A stretch of DNA of 64,000 nucleotides from a bacterium (GCA_021781955.1 JAJXVV010000004.1:1739-65738); one strand, 5' to 3'; counted from the first letter of the stretch, positions 15,473-61,123 are shown. Made by a program: numbers and translations. The notes: a model not told the origin generated them from the sequence alone.

Positions 15473-17491
15473 CTATTTTCGCACATCTTTTTCCAGCGCT
15501 TGTATCTCGTCGCGGATGAGCGCGGCGGTCTCGAAGTCGAGCCGGTCGGCCGCCTCGTGCATCTCGCGGCGCTTCTCGCGGATGAGCTTCGCGAGGTCAG
15601 TGCCGGCGGCGCGCTCATCTATGCGTGCGAGCTCGGAGATGGCCCGCGCGCGCGAGCGTTGGATATCGCCGGTGATGTCCTTGATGCGCTTCTCGACTGT
15701 CTTTGGCGTAACGTGATGCTTCGCGTTGTGCGCGAGCTGGATCTCGCGGCGGCGATTCGTCTCTCCGACCGCTCTTTCGAGCGAGCCGGTCATGCGGTCG
15801 GCATACAGTAGTACGCGGCCGTTCACGTTGCGCGCCGCGCGGCCGATCGTTTGGATGAGCGAGGTCTCGCTTCGGAGAAAACCCTCCTTGTCCGCGTCGA
15901 GGATGCCGACCAATTCCACTTCCGGAAGATCTAATCCCTCGCGCAGCAGGTTCACGCCCACGAGCACGTCGAACGCGCCACGGCGGAAGTCGGTGAGGAT
16001 CTCAATGCGTTCGATGGTTTTCACATCGCTGTGGAGGTAGCGCGCTTTCACGCCGCGCTCGACGAGGAATTGCGCGAGGTCCTCGGCCATCTTTTTCGTG
16101 AGCACGGTCACCATGGAGCGAGCGCCGCGTTTCGTCGTTGCTTCCGCTTCGGCGATAAAATCCTTGACCTGCCCAGAGGACGGTCCTCTGCGGTTTTCTG
16201 CGGATACGTCGGCGGTAACGGGGCGAATGACGATCTCCGGATCGACGAGGCCGGTCGGACGGATGACTTGCTGTATCGGCGTACCGCTCAGCCCGAGTTC
16301 GTACGGCGCCGGCGTCGCGGATGTGTAGATGGTCTGTCCCGTGCGCTCGCGGAACTCGTCGAACGTGAGCGGGCGGTTGTCGACGGCGCTCGGCAAGCGG
16401 AAGCCGTGCTCGACGAGCGTATTTTTGCGCGAACGATCTCCCGCGTACATGCCGCCGATCTGCGAGATGGTCACGTGAGACTCATCGATGACAGTGAGAA
16501 AATCTTTTGGGAAATATGAGAGCAGCGTGTAGGGCGGCTCCCCCGGCTTGCGGCGGTCGAAATGCCGCGAGTAATTCTCGATGCCGTTGCAGTAGCCGAA
16601 CTCGCGGATCATGGTGATGTCCTGGCGCGTTCGGCGCTTCAAGCGCTCAGCTTCGAGCGGCTTGCCGGCGGCATCGAGCTCCTTGAGCCGCTGCTTGAGT
16701 TCCGCTTCGATGTCGGCGAGCGCCGCATCCTGCACATCCTTCGGCGTCACATACTGGCGCGCCGGGAAGATGAACAGCGCTTCATGCCGCGTGACGATGG
16801 CGCGCGTCATCGCATCTATCTCCTCTATCTTGGAGACGCGACCGCCCGCGAGATCGATCCGATAGACGACTCGCTCGCCCGCCGGCATGACCTCGACGTA
16901 CGCACCGAGCGCGCGGAACGTGCCGGGCGAAAGATCGCCGGTCGTACGCTCGAAGTAGATGGAGATGAGCTTGCGGGTGAGCGTTGCGCGCGTCATCTGC
17001 TCGCCCTGCATCAGCTTGAGATTGACCTTCTCGTACTCAATCGGCGAACCGAGGCCGTAGATGCACGAGACCGACGCGACGACGATGACATCCTTGCGCG
17101 TGAGGAGCGCCTGCGTCGCGGCATGCCGCAAGCGCTCGATGTCCTCGTTGATCTGCGCCTCTTTCTCGATGTAGGTGTCGGTGACGGGCACGTACGCTTC
17201 CGGCTGATAGTAGTCGTAGTAGGAAACGAAATAATGCACCGCGTTGTGCGGGAAGAACTCGCGGTACTCAGCGGCGAGCTGCGCGGCAAGAGTTTTGTTG
17301 TGCGCGATGACCAGGGTCGGGCGCTGCGCCTCGGCGATCATGTTGGCGACCGTAAAAGTCTTGCCCGAACCGGTCACGCCGAGGAGCGTCTGATCACGCT
17401 TTCTCTCTTGTAGGCCCTGCACGAGCGAACGAATGGCCTCCGGCTGATCGCCGGAGGGCTGGTATGACGATTCGAGCTTGAACCCGTTCAC
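15473..17491 (-). CDS. uvrB: Excinuclease ABC subunit B
   Basis: Helicase motifs (GVTGSGKTFT), beta-hairpin region and a C-terminal UVR domain (FETAALIRDEIQALEK). 672 aa. Confidence 0.9.
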   Translation of the reverse strand: MNGFKLESSYQPSGDQPEAIRSLVQGLQERKRDQTLLGVTGSGKTFTVANMIAEAQRPTLVIAHNKTLAAQLAAEYREFFPHNAVHYFVSYYDYYQPEAYVPVTDTYIEKEAQINEDIERLRHAATQALLTRKDVIVVASVSCIYGLGSPIEYEKVNLKLMQGEQMTRATLTRKLISIYFERTTGDLSPGTFRALGAYVEVMPAGERVVYRIDLAGGRVSKIEEIDAMTRAIVTRHEALFIFPARQYVTPKDVQDAALADIEAELKQRLKELDAAGKPLEAERLKRRTRQDITMIREFGYCNGIENYSRHFDRRKPGEPPYTLLSYFPKDFLTVIDESHVTISQIGGMYAGDRSRKNTLVEHGFRLPSAVDNRPLTFDEFRERTGQTIYTSATPAPYELGLSGTPIQQVIRPTGLVDPEIVIRPVTADVSAENRRGPSSGQVKDFIAEAEATTKRGARSMVTVLTKKMAEDLAQFLVERGVKARYLHSDVKTIERIEILTDFRRGAFDVLVGVNLLREGLDLPEVELVGILDADKEGFLRSETSLIQTIGRAARNVNGRVLLYADRMTGSLERAVGETNRRREIQLAHNAKHHVTPKTVEKRIKDITGDIQRSRARAISELARIDERAAGTDLAKLIREKRREMHEAADRLDFETAALIRDEIQALEKDVRK
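16173..16190. repeat. 18-bp perfect palindrome CCAGAGGACGGTCCTCTG (copy 1 of 3), inside the uvrB CDS
   Basis: Read directly. On the coding strand it translates in-frame to RRGPSSG within uvrB. Confidence 0.8.
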
Positions 17492-17503
17492 CAGAACACT
17501 CTA

Positions 17504-18748
17504 CTACGAAAGCAGCAGCGCGCACACTTGCTTCTTGCCGCGGCGAAGCATCGCGATGCCTTCGTGAAAGTCGGCAGCATCGAGGACGCGCTTTTCGTCC
17601 ACGACCTGGTCGTTGAGGGCTACGGCCCGGTCCGCAAGGAATTGCCGCGCCTCGCGCTTGGACGACGCGAGCGATGAGGCGATGAGCGCGTCGACGAGCG
17701 GCATGCCTGCCTGCACCTCGCAGTGCGGCGCGGCGCGGCGCAACGTCTCGCGCGCGTGTTCCGACAAAATGTCGAGCGACGCTTCGCCGAAAAGCACCTC
17801 AGTGACCGACTCCGCTTCCTCCGCTTGTTCCTGCCCGTGTACGAGCTTGGTCACCTCGCGCGCGAGCAAACGCTGCGCGCCGCGCGATTTCTTATTTCGC
17901 TTGTGCAGTTCGGCGGCAGCAGCTATCTCTTCGAGCGTCAGGAGCGTAAAGAGCTTCAAATAGTGCTCGACGCTCTCGTCGTTCACATTGAACCAGAATT
18001 GGTAGAACGCGTACGGCGTCGTCATCTCCGGATCGAGCCAGATGGCATTGCCCTCGCTCTTGCCAAATTTCTTCCCGCTCGCCTTGTCGGTGACGATGGG
18101 CAGCGTCAAGCCGTAGGCGGTCTTCTCTTCTTTGCGACGAATGAGATCAACGCCGGTCACGATATTGCCCCACTGATCGGAGCCGCCGACCTGCACGTCG
18201 CAGCCATGCTCCGTGAAGAGGTGCCAGAAATCGTACGCTTGCAAGAGCGGGTACGAGAATTCCGTGAACGATATTCCCTCTTCGCTCTTGAGTCGCGCGG
18301 CGATCGCGTCTTTTTTGACGAGGCCGTTGACCGTGAAATATTTGCCGATATCGCGAAGGAACGCGATGAGATCGAGCTTCGTGAGCCAATCGGCGTTGTT
18401 GACCGCCGTCAGCTCGATACCACCGAGAAGTTTCTGCGCCTGTGTTCTGAGCTTTTCGGCGCGCGCGGCGATGGTCGCCTCATCAAGGAGCGGGCGCTCG
18501 ACATCGGGTTTCGGATCGCCGATGAGTCCGGTGCCGCCACCCAAGAGCACGATGACCCTATGTCCAGCTTCAGCAAAGTGTCGTAAAAGCATGTAACCGG
18601 CGAGGTTGCCGATGTGGATGGATTCTGCGGTCGGATCGACGCCAAGGTAAACTGTGCGCTTGGGACCGTCGGTAATTTCCTCAAGCCTCTCCGACGAGAA
18701 TTGGTAGACAAACCCGCGCCGTTGCAGCGTCTCGGACAATTTCACCAT
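17504..18748 (-). CDS. tyrS: Tyrosine--tRNA ligase
   Basis: Class I HIGH motif (SIHIGNL) and KMSKS-like motif (KFGKSEGN), with a C-terminal S4-like domain. Start at MVKLSETLQRRGFV. Confidence 0.9.
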   Translation of the reverse strand: MVKLSETLQRRGFVYQFSSERLEEITDGPKRTVYLGVDPTAESIHIGNLAGYMLLRHFAEAGHRVIVLLGGGTGLIGDPKPDVERPLLDEATIAARAEKLRTQAQKLLGGIELTAVNNADWLTKLDLIAFLRDIGKYFTVNGLVKKDAIAARLKSEEGISFTEFSYPLLQAYDFWHLFTEHGCDVQVGGSDQWGNIVTGVDLIRRKEEKTAYGLTLPIVTDKASGKKFGKSEGNAIWLDPEMTTPYAFYQFWFNVNDESVEHYLKLFTLLTLEEIAAAAELHKRNKKSRGAQRLLAREVTKLVHGQEQAEEAESVTEVLFGEASLDILSEHARETLRRAAPHCEVQAGMPLVDALIASSLASSKREARQFLADRAVALNDQVVDEKRVLDAADFHEGIAMLRRGKKQVCALLLS

Positions 18749-18761
18749 CCGCGAAATATAG

Positions 18762-18806
18762 CATAAAAAGGGTCGCGCGGCGGGGAGAGCACCGCCGGCG
18801 CGACCC
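18762..18806 (-). terminator. Terminator-like hairpin plus U-tract in the tyrS 5' leader (candidate attenuator)
   Basis: The minus strand reads GGGTCGCGCCGGCGG-tgctctcc-CCGCCGCGCGACCC followed by TTTTTAT. It ends 14 nt upstream of the tyrS ATG. No minus-strand gene lies upstream that it could terminate. Confidence 0.45.
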
Positions 18807-18944
18807 GGCGAAGCGTCAAGATCGCCGCTTGCCGCGACGCCGTAGCCCATGCCACAAGCCGCTGCGACACGCACAGCGCGCCACGCCCAACAGAAATTTG
18901 GAATAAACGCGCCGAGAGGCTTGTACTATGAACGAAGCGCTTAT

Positions 18945-20732
18945 ATGCAACTCTCATCCTCCCTTACCAGCGTGCGCGCGTATGTGGTCGCGCACAAGAT
19001 CACGAGCACGCTCATCGCCATCGTTGTCGTGGGCGGCGGGTACTGGGGCTGGGTGGCGACCCACCCGGCGACCACGCAGACCTACTACATCATCGGCAAT
19101 GTCGCGACCGGAACGATCGTGGCGGCCGTGTCCGAGTCGGGCCAAGTATCGACGACCGACACAGTCGCCATTCAACCGCAAGTCTCGGGCCAGATCACCT
19201 GGGTAGGCGTGCAGCCGGGCGACAAGGTATATGCGGGCGAGAAGCTGGTGACGATTGATAACACGACGGCCCTCCAAAATCTTGCGGCAGCGAAACGCAC
19301 ACTTGCCTCCGATCAGCTCACGTATCAGCAGAGCCAGGCTCAGGCGCCCATTACCTACCAGAACGATCTCAACGCGCTTGCGACCGCCAATACAAACCTG
19401 CAGAACGACTACAACACGACCTACAACGACCTCGTCAACGCCTACCTCAACTTGCCGGGCGTCATCAACGGCGCGCAGGCGGCAATCTATGGCTACGATT
19501 TCGATCCGAAAAAGACCCAGTGGAACATGGACGTGCTCGCCAACGTCTTCACCGGCCAAGAGAACACGACCAACGTCCAAAACTTTAAGACCGCCTCGAT
19601 GAACGACTACCAAACCGCAGACACCGCGTACAACGCCGCGCTCGCCGCGTACCAGCAGACGCCGCGTACGGCCACGACAACCGCGATCGACGCGCTCCTT
19701 TCGCAATCCGTCCAGACCGAGACCGACGTCGCGCAGTCGCTCCAAAGCGAGCTGAATTTCTTCGGCGCGGTGTCCGATCTCGCGCAGGCGAACACCATCA
19801 CGCTTCCGGCAAAATTCCCGACCGTGCAGAGCAACACCACTTCATACCTCGCGACCGCCAACAGCGCGCTCACGACGCTCTTGAACGACCAAAAGACCTT
19901 GCAGAACGACGAGCAGGCCATCACCAACGCGCAGCAGACGATCACGCTTGCCCAAGTCGGCAATCCCCAGGGCGACAATCCTATCAGCTTGCAAGTGTCC
20001 TCGAGCAGCATCCTGCAAGAGCAGCAGAACATCGCGACGCAGGAGGCCAACCTTGCCGACTACGCGATCACCGCGCCTTTTGACGGCACGGTCTCTGCGG
20101 TCGGCGCGCAGGTGGGCAACAACGCGAGCGGCGACCTCGTGACGATCATCTCCAACTCGCAAATCGCCGACCTCTCCATCAACGAGGTCGATGCCGCGCA
20201 GATCAAACTCGGCGACAAGGTCACGCTCACCTTTGACGCGATCAACGGCCTGTCGCTCACGGGCAAAGTCGTCCAGATCGACTCCGTAGGCACGGTGAGC
20301 CAAGGCGTCGTGTCCTACACCATCGAAGTCTCGTTCGACACCCAGGACCCGCGCGTGAAATCCGGCATGACCGTCAATGCGGACATACAGACCGGGGTCG
20401 CGCGCGACGCGATGATCGTTCCCTCCTCCGCGATCAAGACGGCGTCGAACGGCCAGAGTTACGTGCTCGCGTTCCAGCCGGCACTACCAGCCGCGACGGT
20501 CGCCGCCGCCGGATCGGGCGGTATCACCTCGGCGACCCAGCCGGTGCAGATCCCGGTCGTGACCGGACTATCGGACACGACCGATACGCAGATCGTCTCG
20601 GGCCTCGCGTCGGGCCAGCAGATCGTCGTCTCGACCCGCACCGGCGGCCCCGTGACCGCGACCGCAGCGACCGCGGCGACGAGCCGGTTCGGCGGGGGCG
20701 GCGGAGCGGTCATTCGAGGTTTCGGCGGCTAA
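18945..20732 (+). CDS. Efflux pump periplasmic adaptor (membrane fusion protein, HlyD/MacA family) with an unusually long coiled-coil
   Basis: N-terminal TM anchor, a biotinyl-lipoyl-like region, a Q/N/T/A-rich coiled-coil of ~250 aa, then beta-barrel/MP domains. 595 aa from MQLSSSL. It precedes a MacB-type ATPase. Confidence 0.75.
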
Positions 20733-20756
20733 ATCCTCGTCTCGCCAACGCACGAC

Positions 20757-21491
20757 ATGATCGAGGTCAAGAACATAATCAAAACGTACGGATCCGGAGA
20801 CGCCGCGTTCCAAGCGCTCAAGGGCGTCACATTCACCATCCAAGACGGAGAGTTCGTCGCTATTATGGGCCCGTCGGGTTCCGGCAAATCGACGCTCATG
20901 CATATCCTCGGCTGCCTCGACACCGCGACCTCCGGCTCGTACGTCCTCGACGGCAAAGACGTCTCTCGGCTCTCGGACGACGATCTCGCGACCATCCGCG
21001 GGCAGCGCATCGGCTTCGTGTTCCAATCGTTCAACCTCCTTCCCCGCACGAGCGTGCTGCGCAACGTCATGCTTCCGCTCGTGTACGACGCGGCGATACC
21101 GCTCGAGGAGCGCCACGCGCGCTCGTCGGCGGCGCTGCGTGCTGCCGGCCTTTCCGATGAGTTCTTCGGACACTTGTCCAACCAGCTCTCCGGCGGACAA
21201 ATCCAGCGCGTCGCTATCGCGCGGGCGCTCGTCAACGATCCGACGATGATACTGGCCGACGAACCGACCGGTAACCTCGACACGATGACCGGCGAGATCG
21301 TGCTCGGCACCTTTCAACGGCTGAACGAGGAGCATAAACGCACGATCGTGCTCATTACGCACGAACCCGACGTCGCCGAGCACGCGGAACGCATCATCAC
21401 GGTGCGCGACGGGCTTATCACGTCAGATTCCAAGAATCACAAGCGCCGCCGCGCGCTCCTCGCCGAAGCGAGCGCGCGCCAACCCGTATGA
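20757..21491 (+). CDS. ABC transporter ATP-binding protein, MacB/LolD type
   Basis: Walker [10 protein letters not shown], signature LSGGQIQR and Walker [12 protein letters not shown]. Confidence 0.85.
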
Positions 21492-23287: not shown

Positions 23288-23298
23288 CGTATGCTCAG

Positions 23299-23946: not shown

Positions 23947-25394
23947 CGTTCCGGGCGCAGGAGCGGGAAAAGCTGCGCCTCGTGGGCGGGGACGTTCTCG
24001 AGAAAGGCAAAAAGGCGTTCCGAGACACCGAAGCCGAAGGAAGGTGGCATGCCGTACTCCATCGCGCGCACGTATGCATCATCGAGGCGCTGCGCCTCGT
24101 CGTCGCCTTCGTCGCGCAGCCTCTGTTGCTCCTCGAAGCGCGTGCGCTGATCGAGCGGATCGTTGAGCTCGCTAAAGCCCTTGCCTACCTCGCTGCCCGC
24201 GAGAATGACCTGCAAGCGTTCGACCGTTTCCGGCTTTTCGACGAAGCGCTTCGCGAGCGGCTCCAGATAGACCGGCACGCCGACCAGAAACGCTGGTCCG
24301 GAAATGCCTTTGCGCAGTTTTTTCCAAAGATGGTCGACCGCGCGCGCTTTGTTGAGCGTCTCTCCCACCTCGATGTGCGCATCGCGCACCGCCCGTACCG
24401 CCTCCTCTTCGCTGCACGAGAGCGGATCGATGTCGTACTCTTTTTGTATCGCGTCGCAAAAATCGACGACCTTCCATTCCTCGGCGAGATCGATCGTGTG
24501 ACCATGCATTTCGAACGTGTACTTCCCGTAGACCTCCTTGGCGATCGAGCGGTAAAGCTCCTGCACGAACACGCCGCCTTTTTTAAGGTCGCTGTACGCT
24601 TCGTACGACTCGAGCTGTGTATAATCCTGCAAGTGCTCGCGCGACTGGCCTTCATTGCGGAAAATGCGGCCGATCTCGAAGACTTTCGGGAAACCCGCGA
24701 TCAAAAGCTCCTTTTGCCAGAGCTCGCCTGCGGCAATGCGTAGATACACTTCGATATCGAGCGCGTTGTGATGTGTAATGAACGGACGCGCATCGGCTCC
24801 GCCGGGCGTCGTCTCAAGAGCGGGCGTTTCCACCTCGAGGAAACCGCGCGCGCGATAAAAGTCACGTATCGCTTGCCAGAATCTCGCGCGCCGCTCGAAG
24901 CGTTGCCGGAGCTCGCCATTGAGCAATATATCGAGGTACCGTCGGCGCAATTTGAGCTCTTCGTCCTTGAGGCCGAACCAGCTGTCGGGCACGGGGAGGA
25001 GCGATTTTGAAAGCATGCGCCAGGAGCGCTGCCGGAGCGATGATTGTCCGCGCCTGGTTTTGAAAGCGGTTCCCGTAAACTCCACGAAATCGCCGACATC
25101 GACGGCCTGCGAGAACAGGTCGACCTGGCTCCCTTCGCCTTCTTGCACGACGACCTGTGCCTTACCCGTGCCATCGGACACATCGACGAACGTGATGCCG
25201 CCCTGCCCGCGCAGGGAAAGGACGCGGCCGGCCAACGTCGTTGGCCGGCCGCTCTCTTCCAATTCGCCGAATCCCGCGAGAAAATCCGCACACGACGCGT
25301 CGCGAGCAGTCGACGCTGGATATGCGGGCATCCCCGCTTCCCGCAGCAATTCGATTTTCTTGAGTCGCTCCGCTCGGATATCCGCTTCGCTCAT
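23943..25394 (-). CDS. lysS: Lysine--tRNA ligase (class II)
   Basis: OB-fold anticodon-binding N-terminus and class II motifs (FRNEG; GGGIGIDRL-like ...GFGFGVSERL). Start at MSEADIRAERLKK. Confidence 0.9.
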   Translation of the reverse strand: MSEADIRAERLKKIELLREAGMPAYPASTARDASCADFLAGFGELEESGRPTTLAGRVLSLRGQGGITFVDVSDGTGKAQVVVQEGEGSQVDLFSQAVDVGDFVEFTGTAFKTRRGQSSLRQRSWRMLSKSLLPVPDSWFGLKDEELKLRRRYLDILLNGELRQRFERRARFWQAIRDFYRARGFLEVETPALETTPGGADARPFITHHNALDIEVYLRIAAGELWQKELLIAGFPKVFEIGRIFRNEGQSREHLQDYTQLESYEAYSDLKKGGVFVQELYRSIAKEVYGKYTFEMHGHTIDLAEEWKVVDFCDAIQKEYDIDPLSCSEEEAVRAVRDAHIEVGETLNKARAVDHLWKKLRKGISGPAFLVGVPVYLEPLAKRFVEKPETVERLQVILAGSEVGKGFSELNDPLDQRTRFEEQQRLRDEGDDEAQRLDDAYVRAMEYGMPPSFGFGVSERLFAFLENVPAHEAQLFPLLRPER

Positions 25395-28660: not shown

Positions 28661-30238
28661 CTATTGAGATGAGCCGAACGCGCGGATAAGGTTGCTTGCG
28701 GTAATGCCAGAGAGCACCTGCGTGGTACCGGAAGCGCTCGAAATACCGATGGTTACCGGCGTCAGTACGTCATCACCCGTCCCTTTGACGAGCACGAACG
28801 TGCTCGTCCCCTTCGTGATGATGGCGCTCGACGGCACGGTCAGGACATCAGTGGCGCTACTGGTCGTAATGGAAACGTTGCCTGAAAGCCCCGCTTGCAC
28901 GCGCGGATCGCGCTGGTCGAACTCGAGCGTCACCTTGTACGACGAAATGCCGTTCTGCACCGTTGCGGCCGGATCGACCGCAACAACGCGCGCACTGAGC
29001 GGAGCGTCGTTCTTGTAGGCGTCCAGCGATACCTGCGCAGCATCCCCCATCGCGATTTTGGAAACATCGGTCTCCGGCACGTACGTTTCGAATTGGAACT
29101 GCGCGTCCGATATCATCGAAATGAGCGGCGCGCCGGGCGATGCGGTCGCGCCCAAATTCGCGTTGTTGTTCGTCACCGTGCCCGAGAACGGCGCGTAGAG
29201 CGAGGTTTGCGAAAGTGCTACCTGCGCAGCGTCGAGGTTGGCCTGTGCCGCAGCGACGGCGGCGACCTGCTGCGCGGTGTCCTGCGCCGTAGCGGGAGCC
29301 TGTGCGAGCGCGAGGCTCGATTGAGCGTTCGCGAGCGCTGCCTCTGAGGCAGTGAGCGCGGTCTGTGCGGTATTGAGCCCGGCGATCGCGGCGTTGAGGT
29401 TGGTGCGAGCCAACGCGACGGTCGACTGAAGTCCCGCGATAGCGGCCGCATTGTAGCTCGAGGACGGCACGGCAGTGGAGAGCCCGTTCGCGACCTCAGC
29501 GAGGTACGCGCTCACCTTCTGCAGGCCGCTCTGCGCCTGCGTCGCGGCGGCGGTCACGCTGTCAGCGGTCGAATCCGCGGAAAGCGCCGCCTGAACGCCC
29601 TGGAGCGATGAGAGCCACGCTCCGACGGCCACGCGGTCAGCCGGTATCGAGGCTTGCAGTTGCGAGTCGCTCAAGCTCACCACCAGGGTCGGCGAAGACG
29701 AGAGGGGGTTGTTGAGCGCCTGGTCGGCCTTGTTGTGCACGGAATCATACGTGGTTGCATATGCGCTCTGTATCGCCGAGATGACGTTCTGCTCGTTTTG
29801 CGCGACAGTCGATTGCGCACCGCTCACGGCGGTCTGCGCGACCGCAATGCTCTCCGGCCGCGTACCGGCCTGCAAAGCGGCAAGTTTCGCCTGTTGTACC
29901 GCGAGCGCGGCCTGCGCCTGCTCGAGCGCGGCCTGCGCGTCGCTCGGATCGATCGAAGCAAGGAGCGTACCGCGGGCCACGTGCGTGCCCGCGACCGGCC
30001 CGGCGTAGGTGATGCTGCCTGAGCGCTGGAACGAGAGGTCCGTGCTCTCGGCAGCCTTGACGTTGCCCGGCGCATCGACCTCTTGCGTGATGGGGCCCTG
30101 CACGGGGTGCACGTACGAACCCGAGAGGTTCGGATTGGTCGAGACGAACGCGTACGCGATCGAGACGATCGCCACAACGAGCGCCGCGCCGATAACAACG
30201 GGCGGCTGCAGCAAACGAGCGCGCAGTGCTGGACTCAT
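28661..30238 (-). CDS. Efflux adaptor (HlyD/MFP family) with a long A/Q/T-rich coiled-coil
   Basis: 525 aa with a TM anchor and lipoyl-like segments flanking a ~250-aa coiled-coil. Its architecture parallels the 18945-20732 protein. Confidence 0.7.
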   Translation of the reverse strand: MSPALRARLLQPPVVIGAALVVAIVSIAYAFVSTNPNLSGSYVHPVQGPITQEVDAPGNVKAAESTDLSFQRSGSITYAGPVAGTHVARGTLLASIDPSDAQAALEQAQAALAVQQAKLAALQAGTRPESIAVAQTAVSGAQSTVAQNEQNVISAIQSAYATTYDSVHNKADQALNNPLSSSPTLVVSLSDSQLQASIPADRVAVGAWLSSLQGVQAALSADSTADSVTAAATQAQSGLQKVSAYLAEVANGLSTAVPSSSYNAAAIAGLQSTVALARTNLNAAIAGLNTAQTALTASEAALANAQSSLALAQAPATAQDTAQQVAAVAAAQANLDAAQVALSQTSLYAPFSGTVTNNNANLGATASPGAPLISMISDAQFQFETYVPETDVSKIAMGDAAQVSLDAYKNDAPLSARVVAVDPAATVQNGISSYKVTLEFDQRDPRVQAGLSGNVSITTSSATDVLTVPSSAIITKGTSTFVLVKGTGDDVLTPVTIGISSASGTTQVLSGITASNLIRAFGSSQ

Positions 30239-37164: not shown

Positions 37165-37192
37165 GAAAAACCCCGCCTCGTGGCGGGGTTTT
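37165..37192. terminator. Intrinsic terminator (AAAAACCCCGCC-tcgt-GGCGGGGTTTTT) after the secreted Ala-rich protein gene
   Basis: A perfect 8-bp GC stem flanked by an A-tract and a T-tract, so it could act in both directions. Read directly. Confidence 0.55.
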
Positions 37193-37212
37193 TGTGCGAT
37201 ACGACGGAATGA

Positions 37213-38440: not shown

Positions 38441-39910
38441 TTACACCCGCCGCACCTCCTTCGCCCGCACGTCAATGTCGATCGGATACGCGCCCGTGAA
38501 GCATGACGTGCATAGCTCGTCTTCGCGAAGGCCAGTAGCGCGCAACATGCCTTCATATGAAAGGAAGTGCAGCGATGTCGCGCCGAGGTATGCCCGCATC
38601 TGCGGAACCGTTTTATTTGCAGCAATGAGGTCGGCTTGTTTCGGCGTGTCGATGCCGTAAAAATCGGGATATTTGACCGGCGGCGAAGCCACGAGGAAAT
38701 GCACCTCGGTCGCGCCCGCTTCATAGAGCATCTGCACGATCTGCCGCGACGTAGTGCCGCGCACGATGGAGTCGTCGAACACGGCCACGCGCTTGCCACG
38801 TACCATTTCCGGTATCGGCGTCAATTTCGCTCTCACACCCTGTTCGCGCACGTGTTGCTCCGGCGTAATGAAGGTACGATGGATGTAGCGGTTCTTCGTG
38901 AGCGCCATATGAAGCGGAATGTGCAACTGCTCGGCATACCCTATGGCCGCCGGTATGGCGGTCTCCGGCACCGGCACGACGACGTCGGCCTCGAGCGGAT
39001 ACTCCTTGGCGAGCTCGATGCCGAAGTTGCGGCGCACTTCGTAGACGGAACGGCCGAGCAAGTGGCTGTCGGGACGCGCGAAATAGATGAACTCGAAGAC
39101 GTCGAACTTGGGGTCCGGCTGCGCGAGCTGCTCGCTGCTGATGCCGCGTTCGTCGATGATGAGCATCTCGCCGGGCGCGATATCCCGCTCAAAAGCGGCG
39201 CCGATCGGCCCGAGCGCGCAAGTCTCCGAGGCAACGACATATCCTCCATCGAGCTTCCCGAGCGACAGCGGCCGTATCCCGCAGCGATCGCGTATCGCGA
39301 CAAGTTGATCGCGCGACATGATGAGGATGGAAAAAGCGCCCGTCATGAGCGGATAGATCGTCTTTACCGCATCGGTGAATCCCGCACCTTCGCGCATCTT
39401 CGCTGCGATCGCCTCGACTATCATCCGCGAGTCGGAAAATTCGGTCGTATCGATGCCCTGCTTCGAAAGGTATGCGGCCAGCGCGTCGGTCGTCGGGAGA
39501 TTGCCGTTGTGCGCGAGCGCGATCGCGCCGTCGTCCGGTCCGGAGCACAGCGATACGGAATCGTTGAGGCTCGGGTGCGGATCGTCATAGGAAACGTTCT
39601 GCACGGCCGTCGAGCCTGCGGCGAGCATGGGTTGCGCGTGCTTGAGCTTGGTGCCGCCGGTCGTCGAGTAGCGGTTGTGGCCTACCGCGATACCGCCTTT
39701 GAGCGCGCTCAAGAGCTCGTCATTGAACACTTGCGACACGAGCCCCATGCCTTTATGGACGGTGAGCACGTCACCGTTTGAGGCGGCAATGCCGGAGCTT
39801 TCCTGGCCGCGATGCTGGAGCGCGAAGAGTCCGAAAAAGGCGAGCCGCGCGACATCGAGGCCTTTTCCGTAGACCCCGAATACCGCGCATTTCTCGCCAA
39901 GACTGCGCAT
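38441..39910 (-). CDS. purF: Amidophosphoribosyltransferase with a short propeptide
   Basis: MRSLGEKCAVFGVYG (catalytic Cys follows a propeptide, as in B. subtilis PurF), a PRTase motif and Fe-S cluster Cys residues near the C-terminus. Confidence 0.9.
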   Translation of the reverse strand: MRSLGEKCAVFGVYGKGLDVARLAFFGLFALQHRGQESSGIAASNGDVLTVHKGMGLVSQVFNDELLSALKGGIAVGHNRYSTTGGTKLKHAQPMLAAGSTAVQNVSYDDPHPSLNDSVSLCSGPDDGAIALAHNGNLPTTDALAAYLSKQGIDTTEFSDSRMIVEAIAAKMREGAGFTDAVKTIYPLMTGAFSILIMSRDQLVAIRDRCGIRPLSLGKLDGGYVVASETCALGPIGAAFERDIAPGEMLIIDERGISSEQLAQPDPKFDVFEFIYFARPDSHLLGRSVYEVRRNFGIELAKEYPLEADVVVPVPETAIPAAIGYAEQLHIPLHMALTKNRYIHRTFITPEQHVREQGVRAKLTPIPEMVRGKRVAVFDDSIVRGTTSRQIVQMLYEAGATEVHFLVASPPVKYPDFYGIDTPKQADLIAANKTVPQMRAYLGATSLHFLSYEGMLRATGLREDELCTSCFTGAYPIDIDVRAKEVRRV

Positions 39911-39948
39911 ACTAGATGAGCATTGTAGCAGGGAAATCCCTCGATCAC

Positions 39949-39971
39949 AGGGGCTTGCCCCCAGAGGACCG
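39949..39971. repeat. Palindrome copy 2 of 3 (CCCCAGAGGACCGTCCTCTGGGG), intergenic
   Basis: The same 18-bp core with a C at the centre, extended by CC/GG to a 23-bp near-perfect palindrome. It lies 40-60 nt upstream of the purF start and just downstream of the gpmA stop. Confidence 0.8.
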
Positions 39972-40010
39972 TCCTCTGGGGAAAGTTGGGGATAAGGGCT
40001 TGCACTGATG

Positions 40011-40637
40011 CTAGACCTTCTTTGCGTTGACCGCGCGGACCTCTTTGCCATGCATCGAGCCGTCGGGATCGATAGAGTAGACGTGCGCCTCGCCCGTGCC
40101 GAGCTCGAGCTCGGCAACCCTGTCGTCGGGGACACGCTCAAGGTACTTCACGAGCGAACGCAATGAATTGCCGTGGGCGACGACGAGCACGTTGCGACCC
40201 GATTCAAGCACCGGCAGGATGTGCTCGGTGTAGTACGGCACGACGCGCTCATACACATTTTTGAGCGATTCACCTTCCGGTATCGGCACATCCCACCCGC
40301 GGCGCAGCTCCTGGAACTTCTCCTCGCCGAGCGTCTCTTTCATCTGCCATTTGTTCCTGCCGGCGTAGATGCCGTAGTCGCGTTCGTTGAGCGCAGCGCT
40401 CGCGATGGGTTCGAGGTCGTTGCGCCCTATCGCATCACGCATCGCGTCGAAGGTCTGCCGAGTGCGCTTGAGCGCGGAAACATACGCGACATCGACGTGA
40501 ATGTCTTTGATCGCTTTGCCGGCTTTGCGCGCCTCCTCGACACCTTCCGGCGCGAGGTCGACATCGGTGAGGCCCGTCCATTGCCCGAGCGCGTTCCACA
40601 CCGAAGTGCCGTGGCGGACCAACACGAGATACGCCAT
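40011..40637 (-). CDS. gpmA: 2,3-bisphosphoglycerate-dependent phosphoglycerate mutase
   Basis: LVRHGTSVWN with the catalytic His, and a later VVAHGNSLR motif. Confidence 0.85.
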   Translation of the reverse strand: MAYLVLVRHGTSVWNALGQWTGLTDVDLAPEGVEEARKAGKAIKDIHVDVAYVSALKRTRQTFDAMRDAIGRNDLEPIASAALNERDYGIYAGRNKWQMKETLGEEKFQELRRGWDVPIPEGESLKNVYERVVPYYTEHILPVLESGRNVLVVAHGNSLRSLVKYLERVPDDRVAELELGTGEAHVYSIDPDGSMHGKEVRAVNAKKV

Positions 40638-40640: not shown

Positions 40641-41951
<1,311 letters not shown>

Positions 41952-48446: not shown

Positions 48447-48839
48447 TTATTTAGAACGCTTCGCGGTCTTTGCTTTTGCGCGGGTCGCGACTTTCTTCGT
48501 TTTGACCGGCGGCGTCATGAGCGCGATAAGTCGTTCGAGCTTTTCGTTAATGCCATGGAGTTCCGCTTTTACCTCTTGCATCGAACGATCGTCGCGCGGA
48601 GGCTGCGAGAACGGGGGGCGCGCCGCGAATTCGCGGCGCGGCGCGCGATCGGACGGCTCGTGCTTGGCAAAGCACTCTTTGCAATAGACAGGCTTCTTGC
48701 CGTTGGGACGGAACGGGACCTCGCACGCTTTGCCGCACGAGCTGCATTCGGCTTTGAACAGGTGCTTGGGCGCACCACCAAATCCGCCCCTGTGCGGAAA
48801 CGGTTTGCGAGGAAAACGAGAGCTGCGATAGTCAGGCAT
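48447..48839 (-). CDS. Zinc-ribbon (CxxC-n17-CxxC) protein with a basic tail
   Basis: CSSCGKACEVPFRPNGKKPVYCKEC, followed by a Lys/Ala-rich C-terminus. Confidence 0.5.
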   Translation of the reverse strand: MPDYRSSRFPRKPFPHRGGFGGAPKHLFKAECSSCGKACEVPFRPNGKKPVYCKECFAKHEPSDRAPRREFAARPPFSQPPRDDRSMQEVKAELHGINEKLERLIALMTPPVKTKKVATRAKAKTAKRSK

Positions 48840-48923: not shown

Positions 48924-48994
48924 CTGGGGGACTTGGATTCGAACCAAGATAAACGCCTCCAAAGGGCGCTGTCCTACCATTAGACGATCCCCCA
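48924..48994 (-). tRNA. tRNA-Gln (anticodon UUG)
   Basis: Hand-folded cloverleaf with U1:A72 (typical of tRNA-Gln), anticodon loop CTTTGGA and T-loop TTCGAAT. CCA is not encoded. Confidence 0.8.
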
Positions 48995-54012: not shown

Positions 54013-54026
54013 GTTACGATACTACC

Positions 54027-54893
54027 ATGAAAGATGGGGTCATACAGCTCGCTCCCGCGGAATTTCCTCCGCTGTTGCGCGAGATTGCTGACGCCCCCAA
54101 GCAGCTGCACGTGCGCGGCACGATGCCGAGCCTTGAGAAAAAGTGGCTCACGGTCGTGGGCTCACGCGCGATGACCGCGTACGGCAAGCAGACGGTACGG
54201 TATCTCATCGACGGCCTGCGCGGCTACCCCATCGTCATCGTCTCCGGGCTCGCCTATGGCGTGGACGCTGCCGCGCATCGCGCCGCGCTCGATGCTGGCC
54301 TCGCGACCGTCGCCGTGCCCGGCTCTGGGCTCGACTGGGACGTTCTGTATCCGCGAGGGAATGTCGCCCTCGCGCGCGAGATACTCGCTGCAGGCGGCTG
54401 CCTCGTGTCGGAGGAAGAACCAGGCACTCGCGCCGCCGACTGGACCTTTCCGCGCCGCAACAGAATCATGGTCGGCCTCTCGCATGCAACCCTCATCATC
54501 GAGGCGAAGGAGAAGAGCGGCTCGCTCATCACGGCGAAGCTCTCGACCGAATACAACCGCGAGCTTCTCGTCGTGCCCGGTTCGATATTCAGCGAGGAGA
54601 GCAAGGGCACGCACCAATTCCTCAAGCTGGGCGCCTCGGCAGCGACATCCTCCGAAGACGTCCTGCAAGCCCTCGGCATCGCGAAGCGCGAAGGCGCCGC
54701 CAGGTTAAACGAGCTGCGCGACGACCTTTCCGAAGAGGAGCGGCGCGTGTTCGACATTCTGCACGCGCCGGTGCCACGCGACGCGCTTTTGGATGAACTC
54801 ACGTTGCCGATCACCGAGGCCAACGTGCTGTTGAGCACGATGGAAATTAAAGGCCTTATCGTCGAAGAACTGGGCGTCGTCCGCATCCGATGA
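54027..54893 (+). CDS. dprA: DNA processing protein DprA/Smf
   Basis: Rossmann-like DprA core (VVGSRAMTAYG; IVIVSGLAYGVDAAAH). Confidence 0.85.
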   Translation: MKDGVIQLAPAEFPPLLREIADAPKQLHVRGTMPSLEKKWLTVVGSRAMTAYGKQTVRYLIDGLRGYPIVIVSGLAYGVDAAAHRAALDAGLATVAVPGSGLDWDVLYPRGNVALAREILAAGGCLVSEEEPGTRAADWTFPRRNRIMVGLSHATLIIEAKEKSGSLITAKLSTEYNRELLVVPGSIFSEESKGTHQFLKLGASAATSSEDVLQALGIAKREGAARLNELRDDLSEEERRVFDILHAPVPRDALLDELTLPITEANVLLSTMEIKGLIVEELGVVRIR

Positions 54894-54947
54894 ACGCCGC
54901 ATTCGTTTGACATGTGTTAGTGTGATGAAGTATTACTGCGTTCCGAT

Positions 54948-57128: not shown

Positions 57129-57129
57129 T

Positions 57130-58689
57130 ATGAGGCCCGCGACTATCAGACCGCTCAAGGAGATCCTCGCCGCCATGTCGAACAAAAGCGAGGCCGATGT
57201 CGCGCTCGTGACGAAAGCGTACGAGTTCGCGCAAGACGCGCACAAGGAACAGCGCCGGTACTCCGGCGACTCGTACTTCGTTCACCCGGCGGAGGTGGGC
57301 TACTTGCTCGCGGGCCTTGGCATGGACGCGCAGACGATCGCCGCCGGCCTCTTGCACGACACGATCGAGGACGCGGGCGTAAAACCGCAGACCATGACGG
57401 AACTTTTCGGCATCGACGTCCTCACGCTTGTCGAAGGCGTTACTAAATTGGGCGCGCTTCGCTACCGCGGACTTGAACGGCACACAGAGAGCTTGCGCAA
57501 ACTCTTTGCTGCGACTGCCAAAGACATCCGCGTGCTCATCATCAAGCTCATGGACCGCCTTCATAACGCTCGCACTCTCGCCTACGTACCCAATCCGGAG
57601 AAACGCGCACGCATCGCGCTCGAAACGCTCGAGATCTACGCGCCGATCGCTGATCGCCTCGGTATGTCAGTCGTGAAGCAAGAGCTCGAGGACGCGGCAT
57701 TCCCTCACGCCTATCCGAAAGAATACGAGAGAACGCACGAGCTTTTCGGCGAGCGCAAAGAAGAGGGCGAGGAACGCTTGCTGAAGGTCGAGAAGAACCT
57801 CAAGCGCGAGCTTGCTGGTGCTGGACTACGCACCTTCCGTACCGAAGCGCGTGTAAAAGGGCTCTACAGTCTGTTCCGCAAGCTCGAGCGCAAAGATTGG
57901 GACGCATCGAAGATACACGACATGCGAGCATTACGCGTCATCTTTCCGACGATAGCGGATTGCTATTCCGCCCTCGGGGTCATTCACGCGCACTGGCGTC
58001 CGGTACCGGGCAAGATAAAGGATTATATCGCCTTTCCCAAACCCAACGGCTACCAGAGCATCCACACGACCGTGTACACCGGCGACGGCGGCGCGATCGA
58101 GATCCAGCTGCGCACTGAGGCGCAGCATCGCGAGGCGCAGTACGGCATCGCGTCCCACCTCACGTACAAGGAGATCCAACAGGGTCGGTACGAGGGCAAG
58201 CGCGGCGGGCTCGAGTGGATACGGCAGTTCATCCCCACTCGCAGGCGAGCGGCTCAAGATGAGATGTTCGACGCCTCGAAGGCGATGCCCGAGTGGGTGC
58301 AGGAGCTCGCCGAGGTGCAGCGCGACCAGTCAGACGACGCGCACGACTCTTCAGAGGAGTACCTCGACACGCTCAAAACGGACTTTTTCAGCCACCGCGT
58401 GTTCGTCTTCACCCCGAACGGCGACGTCATCGACCTGCCTATCGCGGCGACCCCGATCGATTTCGCGTACGCAGTCCACTCCGATCTCGGCAACACCATG
58501 TCGGGAGCGAGGGTCAACGGCAAAATGGTCTCGCTCGACACCGAGCTCAAGAACGGCGACGTGGTCGAGGTCATTACGAAATCGACCGCGCACCCTTCGC
58601 GCAAGTGGTACGACATCGCGAAAACAAGCGTCGCGAAAAAACATATCCGTTCCGCTCTTGCGGCACAAGAGGCGAGACGAGGGATGTGA
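57130..58689 (+). CDS. Bifunctional (p)ppGpp synthetase/hydrolase RelA/SpoT, short form
   Basis: HD domain (HDTIED), RelA/SpoT synthetase domain and TGS domain. 519 aa with no ACT domain. Confidence 0.85.
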   Translation: MRPATIRPLKEILAAMSNKSEADVALVTKAYEFAQDAHKEQRRYSGDSYFVHPAEVGYLLAGLGMDAQTIAAGLLHDTIEDAGVKPQTMTELFGIDVLTLVEGVTKLGALRYRGLERHTESLRKLFAATAKDIRVLIIKLMDRLHNARTLAYVPNPEKRARIALETLEIYAPIADRLGMSVVKQELEDAAFPHAYPKEYERTHELFGERKEEGEERLLKVEKNLKRELAGAGLRTFRTEARVKGLYSLFRKLERKDWDASKIHDMRALRVIFPTIADCYSALGVIHAHWRPVPGKIKDYIAFPKPNGYQSIHTTVYTGDGGAIEIQLRTEAQHREAQYGIASHLTYKEIQQGRYEGKRGGLEWIRQFIPTRRRAAQDEMFDASKAMPEWVQELAEVQRDQSDDAHDSSEEYLDTLKTDFFSHRVFVFTPNGDVIDLPIAATPIDFAYAVHSDLGNTMSGARVNGKMVSLDTELKNGDVVEVITKSTAHPSRKWYDIAKTSVAKKHIRSALAAQEARRGM

Positions 58690-58697
58690 GTACGCTG

Positions 58698-59666
58698 CTA
58701 CACCGAAAAATTGCTGATCGAATAGAGGTCGTCCTCTTGCTTGGGTTCAGGCTGCTTGAGGGTCGCCGCTGGCTGAGATTCGCCGTCATCAGAGACGGGC
58801 GCGGCCGAGGTTTGCGACTCGTGCCGCGCATCGACGTGAGTCTCTCGTCCCCGCGAGAGAATGGTACGGATCTGCGCGAGATCATCGACAGAGAAGAAGT
58901 CGATGAGGACCTTGCCGCCCTGTTCTTTCTTCTCGATGCGCACTCGCGTACCGAGCTTCTCGGTGAGTTCCCGCTCAAGGAGCAGAAGTTCGGGCGTGAG
59001 GTCAGGCTTGCGCGTACGCTCGGTCGCGATACGGCGCGCCGCCTGTTCCGCATCACGCACCGTCATGCGGCGCGTGATGATCTCCTGGAAAAAGGTCTTC
59101 TGCTCCGCAGGGCGGTCGATGAGCATGAGGAGCGGCCGCGTATGGCCTTCCGATATCTCGCCCGTGCGAAGCGCCTGCTGCATCTCGTCGGACAACATGA
59201 GGATGCGCAGGGTGTTGGAAACGTATTCGCGGCTTTTGCCGACCCGCTTCCCGACCTCGATATGTTTCAAACCGAACTCCTTCACGAGGCGGTCGAACGC
59301 GAGCGCGCGGTCGACGACGTTGAGATCTTCGCGTTGGAGGTTCTCGATGATGGCGAGCTCGAGCTTCATGCGATCGGTGTCCCCCGCGCTGCGGATGACG
59401 ACCGGCACCTCGCGAATACCGGCGAGCTTGGCCGCTCGCAAGCGGCGTTCGCCCGCGATAAGTTCGTACTGTACCGAGATGCCCTCGCCCGGCCGTTCGG
59501 TCTCCTTACGCGTTACGGTAAGAGGCTGCAACACGCCATAGCTGCGGATAGATTCGGCGAGCGAGGCGAGCGCTGCTTCATCGAAGGTCTTGCGCGGTTG
59601 GAACGGATTTGGGTGGATGCGATCCACCTCGACCCAGAAAATGGAATCGCCTTGATAGGGGCTCAT
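58698..59666 (-). CDS. parB: ParB/Spo0J-family partition protein (no adjacent parA)
   Basis: ParB box LIAGERRLRAAKLAG and an HTH. Start at MSPYQGDSIFW. Confidence 0.8.
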   Translation of the reverse strand: MSPYQGDSIFWVEVDRIHPNPFQPRKTFDEAALASLAESIRSYGVLQPLTVTRKETERPGEGISVQYELIAGERRLRAAKLAGIREVPVVIRSAGDTDRMKLELAIIENLQREDLNVVDRALAFDRLVKEFGLKHIEVGKRVGKSREYVSNTLRILMLSDEMQQALRTGEISEGHTRPLLMLIDRPAEQKTFFQEIITRRMTVRDAEQAARRIATERTRKPDLTPELLLLERELTEKLGTRVRIEKKEQGGKVLIDFFSVDDLAQIRTILSRGRETHVDARHESQTSAAPVSDDGESQPAATLKQPEPKQEDDLYSISNFSV

Positions 59667-59761
59667 GCGGTGAGTATACCACGACGCGGTCGTTTGTTTT
59701 TTCCACAAAAAACCATACACTAAGGCTTCAGGTCCCCCTTCGCTCGAGTTTTGGGGACGAT

Positions 59762-59843
59762 GCCGGGGTGGCGGAATTGGTAGACGCGCACGACTCAAAA
59801 TCGTGTATCGCAAGGTGTGAGGGTTCGAGTCCCTCTCCCGGCA
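59762..59843 (+). tRNA. tRNA-Leu (anticodon CAA)
   Basis: Anticodon loop CTCAAAA, long variable arm (class II) and T-loop TTCGAGT. CCA is not encoded. Confidence 0.85.
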
Positions 59844-59861
59844 CTGCTATACTAGTGACGT

Positions 59862-60227
59862 ATGATTCCATTTTTCTACATGTTCTACCGGTTCGGGCGA
59901 AGCGTATGGGCGTCACTGAAAGACCCGGAGTTCGAGGCGCTCTTTACGCTCATGCTCATCGTGCTCAGCGTCGGTACGCTTTTTTATCACGAGGCCGAGG
60001 GCTGGGGTTGGCTCGATTCGCTCTTTTTCAGCGTGACAACGCTCACGACCGTTGGCTACGGCAACCTTGTACCACACACCGCGATCGGCAAAATATTCAC
60101 CATTGCATACCTCTTCGTCGGCATCGGCGTTCTGCTCGGATTCATCAACTTCGTCGCTGACCACGCCATCAAGGAGCATAAGGATTCGAGCATTTTTCCA
60201 TGGCGCAAAAACTCCTCGTCATCGTAG
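59862..60227 (+). CDS. Two-TM potassium channel pore protein (KcsA-like)
   Basis: K+ selectivity filter TVGYGN between two TM helices. The 3' end overlaps the miaA start by 28 nt. Confidence 0.7.
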   Translation: MIPFFYMFYRFGRSVWASLKDPEFEALFTLMLIVLSVGTLFYHEAEGWGWLDSLFFSVTTLTTVGYGNLVPHTAIGKIFTIAYLFVGIGVLLGFINFVADHAIKEHKDSSIFPWRKNSSSS

Positions 60228-61123
60228 GACCGACCTCTTCCGGCAAATCCGCGCTCGCTGTCGAGCTCGCAAGAAAGTTCAGCGGGGAGGTCATCTCGGC
60301 CGATTCGCGCCAGGTGTACCGCGGCCTTAATATCGGCACCGGAAAGATCACGGCGCGCGAGATGCGGGGCGTGCGGCATCACCTTCTCGACGTGGCGTCG
60401 CCAAAGCAGGTCTTCACCGCACACGATTTCATGATGAAAGCCCGCGGCGCGATATCTTCGATATCGCGCCGCGACCGCTTTCCCATCGTTGCCGGCGGTA
60501 CCGGCTTTTACATCGACGCATTGCTCGACCGCGTCATACTGCCTGACGTTCCCGCCGACCCTGCCTTCCGCCGCCTGCATGAGGACGCCTCGGCCGCAGA
60601 ACTATTCCGCATTTTGCGGAAGATCGACCATGATCGTGCGGGGACGATCGACCCGCACAACAAGCCCCGGCTCATCCGCGCGCTTGAGATAGCTCGCGCG
60701 CTTGGCAAGGCCCCCCGCACTCCAGAGGACGGTCCTCTGTATGAGGCGCTCTGGATAGGTCTCGACCTGCCGAAAGAAGAGCTTGATAAAAAGATCGATG
60801 CGCGTCTCAAGACCCGTATGAAGCAAGGCATGCTCGCCGAAGCGAGAAGGTTGCACGCAGGAGGATTGAGCTATGCGCGCATGGAAGCGCTCGGGCTCGA
60901 ATACCGCTCCATGGCTCGCCTCTTGCAAAAGAAAGTGACGCGCGAGCAAATGACGGACGAGCTGTCTCGCGCCATAAAACAATATGCGAAACGCCAGCGC
61001 ACCTATTGGCAACGCAATAAAGAAATCCGATGGTTCTCGCCTAACGATGCCGCGGCGGTCGAAGAGGTCGTACGCGCATGGGCAACGAACTCTCCGGACA
61101 TTCTCGGTGCTCGCACCCTTTAA
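60200..61123 (+). CDS. miaA: tRNA dimethylallyltransferase
   Basis: P-loop VIVGPTSSGKSALAVELA plus DSRQVYRGLNIGTGK. Confidence 0.9.
   Translation: MAQKLLVIVGPTSSGKSALAVELARKFSGEVISADSRQVYRGLNIGTGKITAREMRGVRHHLLDVASPKQVFTAHDFMMKARGAISSISRRDRFPIVAGGTGFYIDALLDRVILPDVPADPAFRRLHEDASAAELFRILRKIDHDRAGTIDPHNKPRLIRALEIARALGKAPRTPEDGPLYEALWIGLDLPKEELDKKIDARLKTRMKQGMLAEARRLHAGGLSYARMEALGLEYRSMARLLQKKVTREQMTDELSRAIKQYAKRQRTYWQRNKEIRWFSPNDAAAVEEVVRAWATNSPDILGARTL
60722..60739. repeat. Palindrome copy 3 of 3 (CCAGAGGACGGTCCTCTG), inside the miaA CDS
   Basis: It translates in-frame as PEDGPL within miaA. Confidence 0.8.

Follow-up and report, generated by a model that had tools for sequence, protein, structure and literature searches.

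A short palindromic repeat occurs at three sites in a bacterial DNA stretch of 64,000 nucleotides (GCA_021781955.1, JAJXVV010000004.1:1739-65738; the whole stretch analysed is hereafter called the window): inside uvrB, in the gap between gpmA and purF, and inside miaA. A first-pass annotation of the DNA had placed the copies in these same genes and gap, and the open reading frames (ORFs) and Pfam domains agree. Those UvrB and MiaA homologs that bear names belong to Candidatus Kaiserbacteria and Paceibacterota, and the window, with a G+C content of about 61%, therefore represents a Candidatus Kaiserbacteria genome of the candidate phyla radiation (CPR), or Patescibacteria. The features of the three sites are as follows, with positions counted from the first base of the window.

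15473-17491, minus strand: uvrB, host of copy 1; ORF whose homologs are named excinuclease ABC subunit B, with UvrB Pfam domains
16174-16190: copy 1, CAGAGGACGGTCCTCTG on the plus strand, inside uvrB and read there on the minus strand as R-G-P-S-S (exact match and translation)
16175-16213, minus strand: variable linker ADVSAENRRGPSS of UvrB, amino acids 427-439, holding copy 1 (ortholog alignment and linker lengths)
38441-39910, minus strand: purF, amidophosphoribosyltransferase (Pfam GATase_6/7 and Pribosyltran), start at MRSLGEKC; downstream neighbour of copy 2
39962-39978: copy 2, intergenic (exact match)
39959-39981: copy 2 extended to a 23-nt palindrome, CCCCAGAGGACCGTCCTCTGGGG, intergenic
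40011-40637, minus strand: gpmA-like histidine phosphatase gene (Pfam His_Phos_1, E = 1.5e-40); upstream neighbour of copy 2
60200-61123, plus strand: miaA, host of copy 3; ORF whose homologs are named tRNA dimethylallyltransferase MiaA, Pfam IPPT
60723-60739: copy 3, inside miaA and read on the plus strand as (P)EDGPL, amino acids 175-180 (exact match and translation)

The symmetric part of the repeat spans 17 nt (8+1+8), CAGAGGAC-S-GTCCTCTG, or CAGAGGACSGTCCTCTG as a single string. It had been described as an 18-bp perfect palindrome, but the 18th base of the recurring 18-mer CCAGAGGACSGTCCTCTG is merely a 5' C that the three copies have in common and lies outside the symmetry. An exact search locates the 18-mer at 16173-16190, 39961-39978 and 60722-60739; the count of three was thus correct, while the middle copy had been placed 10 bases off, at 39951-39968. 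The centre base is G in uvrB, C in the intergenic copy and G in miaA, as first recorded.

The repeat is non-random, and the earlier view that its recurrence lies far beyond chance holds: three exact copies in 64 kb compare with no match in 100 dinucleotide-preserving shuffles. No degenerate copy is found in the window when up to three mismatches are allowed, and the 8-mer half-site is confined to the three copies, which are present at about one per 20 kb. All six frames of the element are open, in line with the reported lack of stop codons, and encode the peptides QRTVL, RGRSS, EDGPL, RGPSS and EDRPL. The two genic copies are read in different frames, giving RRGPSSG in UvrB and PEDGPL in MiaA, as had been noted. 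A coincidence of codon usage and conserved peptides is effectively refuted for the window copies by the shuffles, by copies that are in different frames or unread, and by flanking peptides that are unconserved in orthologs. Such a coincidence probably does account for one match elsewhere (locus L040), where the 17-mer falls on the Tgt motif LPEDRPLHLLGVG, resembling what we take to be the conserved form of this motif, LPEDKPRYLMGVG.

Copies in other genomes and the genes beside them

A scan of one genome per species returned 53 sites in 49 loci, a total near chance (about 70 expected by our own estimate), and a metagenome scan added 65 further loci. The species-scan genomes with multiple copies are metagenome-assembled genomes (MAGs) of CPR bacteria, with eight copies in a Candidatus Vogelbacteria MAG and five in a Saccharibacteria MAG; two copies each are present in a second Saccharibacteria MAG and in a MAG labelled 'bacterium'. 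Carriage by phages is not supported, with one match in 2.9 million viral contigs. Exactly 15 nt past three copies of the Vogelbacteria MAG lies a TGnTATAAT-like extended -10 box (L025, 5199-5219 and 5889-5909; L043, 275-295). The box at 5889-5909 precedes a RelA/SpoT-like gene and that at 5199-5219 is the 3' coding end, on the other strand, of the transposase-like gene described below; judged by these motifs, the Vogelbacteria repeat unit may carry an outward promoter.

DNA uptake signals and highly iterated palindromes such as HIP1, which would serve genome-wide DNA transactions, resemble the repeat in being short, exact, dispersed and tolerated in genes, and CPR bacteria are thought to take up DNA. 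Uptake signals and HIP1 occur about once per kb, however, far denser than the one copy per 20 kb of the window or the eight copies of a whole MAG, and the sequence of the repeat varies among close relatives, whereas uptake signals are conserved within a lineage. A role of this kind is extremely improbable.

The repeat is associated with a gene family related to REP-associated tyrosine transposases (RAYTs; REP, repetitive extragenic palindromic element). In the Vogelbacteria locus L025, copies at 5182 and 5872 bracket an ORF of 226 amino acids. All five two-copy loci with a spacing of 650-780 nt (L025; L030 from Saccharibacteria; L092, L099 and L108 from metagenome contigs) encode an IS200-like protein of 205-260 amino acids between the copies, and a single copy abuts a RAYT-like gene in L022 (Nomurabacteria) and in L105. 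Twelve of about 118 non-window sites lie within 50 nt of a RAYT-like gene, which occupies less than 1 kb of a genome assumed to measure roughly 1 Mb.

The RAYT-like protein matches the Pfam model Y1_Tnp (IS200-like) with 29.8 bits (cutoff 23), and its best NCBIfam match is REP_Tyr_transpos, the REP-associated tyrosine transposase (E = 4.7e-11). An HUH motif, N-H-F-H-L-L (H79/H81), and a tyrosine motif, Y-I-H-L-N-P (Y139), are invariant in 46 members. The AlphaFold model has a pLDDT of 90, and its best fold match in the PDB is 4ER8, the Escherichia coli RAYT with a REP hairpin (E = 7.8e-6), followed by the TnpA structures of IS608 and ISDra2. The family comprises 1,291 clusters at 50% identity (E <= 1e-30), and its members with names are all Patescibacteria. 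High-GC, Kaiserbacteria-like RAYTs are absent from the best 120 homologs, the Kaiserbacteria members having come from a representative search and from cluster names.

Other members of the family, those of L122, L123, L124 and L045 having been chosen regardless of the 17-mer, have their own palindromes on either side:

L122 and L124: RAYT-flanking palindrome TACCCCATAGGTCTTGCCTATGGGGTA
L123: RAYT-flanking 40-nt perfect palindrome built on GAGGACCGCCCTC
L045: RAYT-flanking palindrome CTTGGCGGAGCTWAGCTCCGCCAAG
L128 (Kaiserbacteria): CAGCGGTCAAGGTAAGACCTTGACCGCTG upstream of the RAYT gene and again at its 3' end, and once more at a distance of 2.5 kb
L127 (Kaiserbacteria): GAGGCGWCGCCTC on both sides of the RAYT gene

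The RAYT-like gene is present once per locus in the loci seen. In L122 and L124 (6100-11600) it occupies the same position, in the order dnaE, small ORF, RAYT, pth, and the two proteins are 75% identical; L124 contains additional copies of the palindrome of its RAYT close by (9373 and 11030). The conserved gene order suggests vertical inheritance of a domesticated transposase. Within some of the RAYT-like genes, palindromes encode in-frame stretches ahead of the HUH motif: RRGRSFAE in L022 (6034-6054), SRGRSLG in protein P0299 and PQRTVLYGEDRPL in L030 (about 4110-4150). In the gene of L045 the internal palindrome is another one, GTCTGTCAGCACCTGGTGCTGACAGAC (about 2350-2378).

Hairpin structure and family variants

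As single-stranded DNA, copy 1 forms a hairpin with a stem of 7 bp and a loop of 3 nt (-7.0 kcal/mol). The copies have this structure in common, with longer stems where the flanks pair, and range from -7 to -14.6 kcal/mol (z = -2.4 to -7.7); the intergenic copy reaches -11.4 kcal/mol (z = -4.1). In an alignment of 16 sites, 13 beside RAYT genes and the three of the window, six outer stem positions were analysed for covariation. Compensatory changes amount to 37 double-change cells versus 15 in shuffles, a value reached by none of 500 shuffles, and the signal collapses once the pairing register is slid. This covariation points to a folded hairpin rather than to recognition of the duplex.

The bases flanking the foot of the hairpin differ by lineage (ACCA, CATG, GGTA, CGTA, CATA and TACA; CCC, GCC and CTC in the window), and lineage-specific complementary flanks lengthen the palindrome in many low-GC contigs (cgTA...TAcg, ggTA...TAcc, caTA...TAtg and taCA...TGta). 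What is conserved is a 9-11-nt tip, AGGACSGTCCT, and the exact 17-mer represents one variant within a larger family. In the window the copies are singlets; doublets are present at the orthologous uvrB, uvrA and miaA sites of other Kaiserbacteria and in L055, L088 and L115. The use of the centre base as an orientation marker was considered and rejected, since the copy flanks in L025, L030 and L099 are in direct orientation while the centre flips or stays.

A perfect dyad may also mark the operator of a dimeric transcription factor, for example a global regulator of DNA repair or nucleotide metabolism. In favour of an operator are the window copy upstream of purF, the tandem pair directly ahead of uvrA in locus L010, and the -10-like boxes that follow three copies of the Vogelbacteria MAG at a fixed distance. 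Two of the three window copies, however, lie deep in coding regions, the copies are all identical and lack the degenerate sites of a regulon, and the covarying outer stems indicate a folded hairpin. One of the Vogelbacteria '-10' boxes is the coding end of a RAYT gene, and the spacing at purF differs, with the centre of the copy about 68 nt from the ATG. An operator is very improbable. An SOS or LexA-type operator, as suggested by uvrB and by the 15-nt spacing to TATAAT, was rejected on account of the identical intragenic copies, the covarying stems and the identity of the '-10' box with a RAYT coding end.

The intergenic copy is located 32 nt past the gpmA stop codon and 51 nt ahead of the purF ATG. 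A consensus scan called neither a terminator nor a promoter at this copy, and there is no T-tract; the copy may provide a putative 3' hairpin for the gpmA mRNA. A TACAAT hexamer is present at 39922-39927 on the minus strand, 11 nt upstream of the purF ATG, where the consensus scan called no promoter. Its position suggests a very short leader or a leaderless purF transcript.

The window is also rich in other perfect palindromes. With a stem of at least 10 bp and a loop of at most 6 nt, 12 loci are found versus about one expected (Markov orders 1, 3 and 5), the extended intergenic copy at 39959-39981 being one of them. The 11 further loci are each unique and GC-rich and lie, by position, mostly within long ORFs:

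3595-3622
5719-5751
12701-12731
12772-12792
25224-25252
28787-28808
37166-37193
40097-40116
41551-41576
48619-48640
60443-60473

The palindromes in uvrA (12701-12731) and eno fall on codon runs that are self-complementary (ERAL... and ARAAAAARA), and the 31-nt perfect palindrome in miaA (60443-60473, RGAISSISRR) shows no indel relative to orthologs. Rfam matches in the window are confined to five tRNA genes (4082-4153, 48924-48994, 59762-59843, 62972-63042 and 63717-63799), none of which overlaps a palindrome.

The uvr and miaA sites in related genomes

The UvrB linker that joins RP(I/V)(V/T) to GQVKDF was compared across 120 Kaiserbacteria proteins and has 6 amino acids in 80 and 8-27 in the remaining 40. 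In the window it has 13, i.e. seven more than the commonest linker and than the closest ortholog, which is 87% identical, the best non-self value. The DNA at this site was read for four orthologs: the closest one, L050, L053 and L054. It is empty of a palindrome in the closest ortholog, and the other three contain genome-specific doublets of related palindromes with the core GGACSGTCC or GGTCSGACC. The doublet of L050 is CCGAGGACGGTCCTT-AAGGGAGCCC-AAGGACCGTCCTCGG; L053 has the same arrangement of doublet and spacer with the core GGTCSGACC in all four arms, and L054 has a third type of doublet. A common spacer between different cores implies, as read from the aligned sites, replacement or concerted change. 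L053 carries a second, intact GGTC-core doublet inside uvrA, and L050, with a GGAC-type doublet in uvrB, has a decayed GGTC-type doublet in uvrA.

Just upstream of the palindrome, the uvrB coding strand at 16191-16213 (minus) reads TCCGCAGAAAACCGCAGAGGAC, in which the 7-mer CCGCAGA occurs twice in direct orientation, 3 nt apart; this repeat could be a footprint of the acquisition of the unit, or chance. At the contig edge of L010 (37-79; JACQNR010000019.1, labelled an Acidobacteria MAG and not CPR), the 17-mer is present twice in direct orientation at a distance of 26 nt, immediately ahead of the likely uvrA start (MGEVISIRGARVHNLKN). By its position, this pair appears to be a further link between the palindrome and a uvr gene.

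The copy in miaA leaves the protein length unchanged relative to 119 orthologs. The first-pass annotation had proposed checking whether copies coincide with indels, which is the case in uvrB (+7 amino acids) but not in miaA. Three other Kaiserbacteria carry the same core at the MiaA site as the window. The orthologous site of P0179 reads GAGGACCGTCCTCTG, with the frame kept and the centre base flipped, that of P0173 is a doublet, a tandem pair of TACCAAGGACSGTCCTTGGTA, and P0175 encodes QRTVL there. In L050, an intact GGAC-core palindrome lies within msrA, again without a change in protein length. One palindrome arm coincides with native conserved codons in both cases, P-L-Y in MiaA and P-S-Y in MsrA. 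In-frame copies in other CPR contigs are found in ksgA, eno, uvrC and further genes. In six MiaA orthologs of other Kaiserbacteria (P0191, P0193, P0232, P0150, P0198 and P0126), the linker contains peptides that recur, GFVNP and GLRNP among them. Other palindromes, for instance GGGTTCGTGAACCC, could encode these peptides, an indication that more hairpin families may occupy the MiaA site.

A rival origin dispenses with any transposase: palindromes would form, or become perfect, in place through hairpin-templated (quasi-palindrome) mutation or through gene conversion between similar sequences, and RAYT genes would merely also attract palindromes. Besides the miaA and msrA copies, which leave the protein length constant and have one arm on native codons, the excess of mostly unique, intragenic palindromes in the window and the indel-free site of the 31-nt palindrome in miaA fit such an origin. 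It leaves unexplained, however, why an identical 17-nt sequence is present at unrelated sites and in distant CPR classes, and why it lies on both sides of Y1 genes in five contigs. In addition, the uvrB site is 7-21 amino acids longer where palindromes occur and empty in the closest ortholog. This origin has a small probability.

Proposed mechanism and comparison with known systems

The 17-nt palindrome is probably a member of a family of REP-type hairpins on which a RAYT-like HUH/Y1 enzyme, encoded outside the window, acts; the probability of this reading is put at roughly 0.78. The first-pass annotation had argued for a DNA-level element instead of a conserved peptide, and this is borne out by the different frames, by the location of copies in unrelated genes and intergenic DNA, and by the transposase-family gene that they flank in related genomes. 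Among its candidates, a miniature palindromic insertion element in the manner of the Rickettsia palindromic elements (RPEs) comes closest and is refined here to a REP-type hairpin with a RAYT-like enzyme. The iterated palindrome or uptake signal and the binding site of a global regulator are unsupported, because of the low density, the intragenic copies, the covarying outer stems and the copies that bracket Y1 transposase genes.

In the proposed mechanism, the repeat is a short DNA hairpin with a 7-8-bp stem and a 3-nt CSG loop, and a RAYT-like nuclease widespread in Patescibacteria would maintain the family. By analogy with E. coli TnpA-REP and the TnpA of IS200/IS605, the proposed target of the enzyme is the hairpin as folded in single-stranded DNA, e.g. 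at the replication fork. After binding, the enzyme would cut the DNA beside the hairpin and rejoin it, so that single hairpins and inverted, REPIN-like doublets could be copied in trans to new places. In compact genomes, many such copies would land within genes, and intragenic copies would persist because they contain no stop codon in six frames and lie in tolerant surface linkers, as in UvrB and MiaA. A cognate RAYT would be encoded elsewhere in the genome of the window and would mobilise or homogenise the window copies, and the inserts would be neutral for protein function.

Several observations weigh against this reading. No mobility has been observed. The window and about 75 kb of other Kaiserbacteria DNA around uvrB and miaA contain no RAYT-like gene, which makes any link to an enzyme of this genome an indirect one. 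The protein scores 42.8 bits against the NCBIfam RAYT model, under the cutoff of 80, and a sequence-profile search of the PDB with 4 and with 46 RAYT sequences gave no significant match; the fold comparison alone was informative. RAYTs with an identical flanking 17-mer are just 24-48% identical to each other, and that of L025 is nearer (56-60%) to enzymes with a different palindrome. The repeat lacks the 5' GTAG (or CGTC) foot that is canonical in classical REPs, and its copy density is below that of classical REP-rich genomes. Finally, the miaA copy of the window and the msrA copy of L050 look, from the alignments, as if they overwrote native codons; additive insertion fails for them because protein length is unchanged and one arm lies over native conserved codons.

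A further reading, which is unlikely, is that the RAYT-hairpin system of Patescibacteria, beyond insertion, rewrites short coding stretches in place and keeps them homogenised. The idea draws on the replacement of codons at constant length in miaA and L050 msrA, on the change of the uvrB doublet core from GGAC to GGTC in four arms, with GGTC intact in L053 uvrA and decayed in L050 uvrA, and on a 9-11-nt hairpin tip common to enzymes that are 24-48% identical. If true, it would mean that a domesticated single-strand nuclease replaces protein loops from a template or subjects them to gene conversion, maybe preferentially in connection with nucleotide-excision-repair genes, in an ancient, vertically inherited partnership across CPR.

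On the preferred reading of a REP-type hairpin with a RAYT-like enzyme, the finding extends REP/RAYT systems, whose best-known examples are proteobacterial, to the Patescibacteria, which are ultra-small and depend on a host; the literature searched contained no relevant paper on REP or RAYT in Patescibacteria or CPR, nor a description of this protein subfamily. With intergenic space almost nil, hairpins would often lie inside essential genes, and odd short inserts in CPR proteins, such as those at the UvrB linker hot spot, would be explained. For annotation, peptides of the EDGPL, RGPSS and QRTVL type should be regarded as repeat-encoded. The hairpins could serve as natural markers of strain divergence, and the compact pair of hairpin and enzyme is open to biochemical testing.

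The closest known system is the 'REPtron' of REPs or REPINs and RAYTs in E. coli, Pseudomonas and Stenotrophomonas. Both consist of dispersed short hairpin palindromes, as singlets and inverted doublets, with copies that bracket an HUH/Y1 gene, here with a fold nearest to the E. coli RAYT (4ER8); both show lineage-specific repeat variants and a conserved gene position, as in L122 and L124. The CPR RAYT-like loci match the REPtron pattern described for RAYTs (PMC6006769). As a rule, RAYTs are present in a single copy and inherited vertically, with over-represented 16-mers at their flanks (PMC5581495). In contrast to the REPtron, the repeat has no GTAG foot, a very short stem (7-8-bp core) and a 3-nt loop, is sparser, and has many intragenic copies. 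The CPR protein forms a separate subfamily, with a C-terminal extension of about 80 amino acids and a score under the NCBIfam RAYT cutoff, in a different host phylum, Patescibacteria. In the window, the copies are singlets and not the inverted doublets of REPINs, and two of the three are genic and in frame, unlike the extragenic REPs. A 5' GT[AG]G foot marks the canonical REPs; the hairpins of Quentin's subclass 2.6 and class 3 are atypical and without GTAG, and in-frame REPs inside tnpA-REP genes are known from subclass 2.4 (PMC6006769).

The insertion sequences of the IS200/IS605 family (IS608, ISDra2) likewise encode an HUH/Y1 enzyme and have a subterminal hairpin at either side of its gene; they are multicopy elements whose left and right end hairpins are distinct and move with the gene. 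Here, in contrast, both flanking hairpins are identical and solo hairpins are dispersed without the gene, which sets the repeat apart from this family. Since the gene is present once per locus and is syntenic in L122 and L124, the system resembles a domesticated RAYT and not a multicopy insertion sequence.

A second comparison concerns palindromes within genes. RPE-1 has a length of about 100-150 bp, and RPE-4 and RPE-6 are CGTC-tagged. The present unit has 17-23 nt, no tag and an associated Y1 gene family, and CGTC occurs only at the centre of one orientation and not as an end tag; its resemblance to RPEs is functional, lying in in-frame tolerance, and not one of membership. Like intragenic REPs and RPEs, it forms in-frame palindromes in housekeeping genes, located in linkers or loops as singles or dimers and conspicuously frequent in uvrA, uvrB and other repair genes (PMC3733652). 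Intragenic REPs are a documented minority that includes uvrB of Rickettsia conorii and uvrA of Thioalkalivibrio and O. terrae, and CGTC elements lack a dedicated transposase (Di Nocera et al. 2013, PMC3733652). Intragenic REPs, above all in uvr genes, have thus already been described in other phyla, and the window provides a new example of a known phenomenon, which adds independent cases to the unexplained association of intragenic REPs with uvrABC noted in 2013 (PMC3733652).

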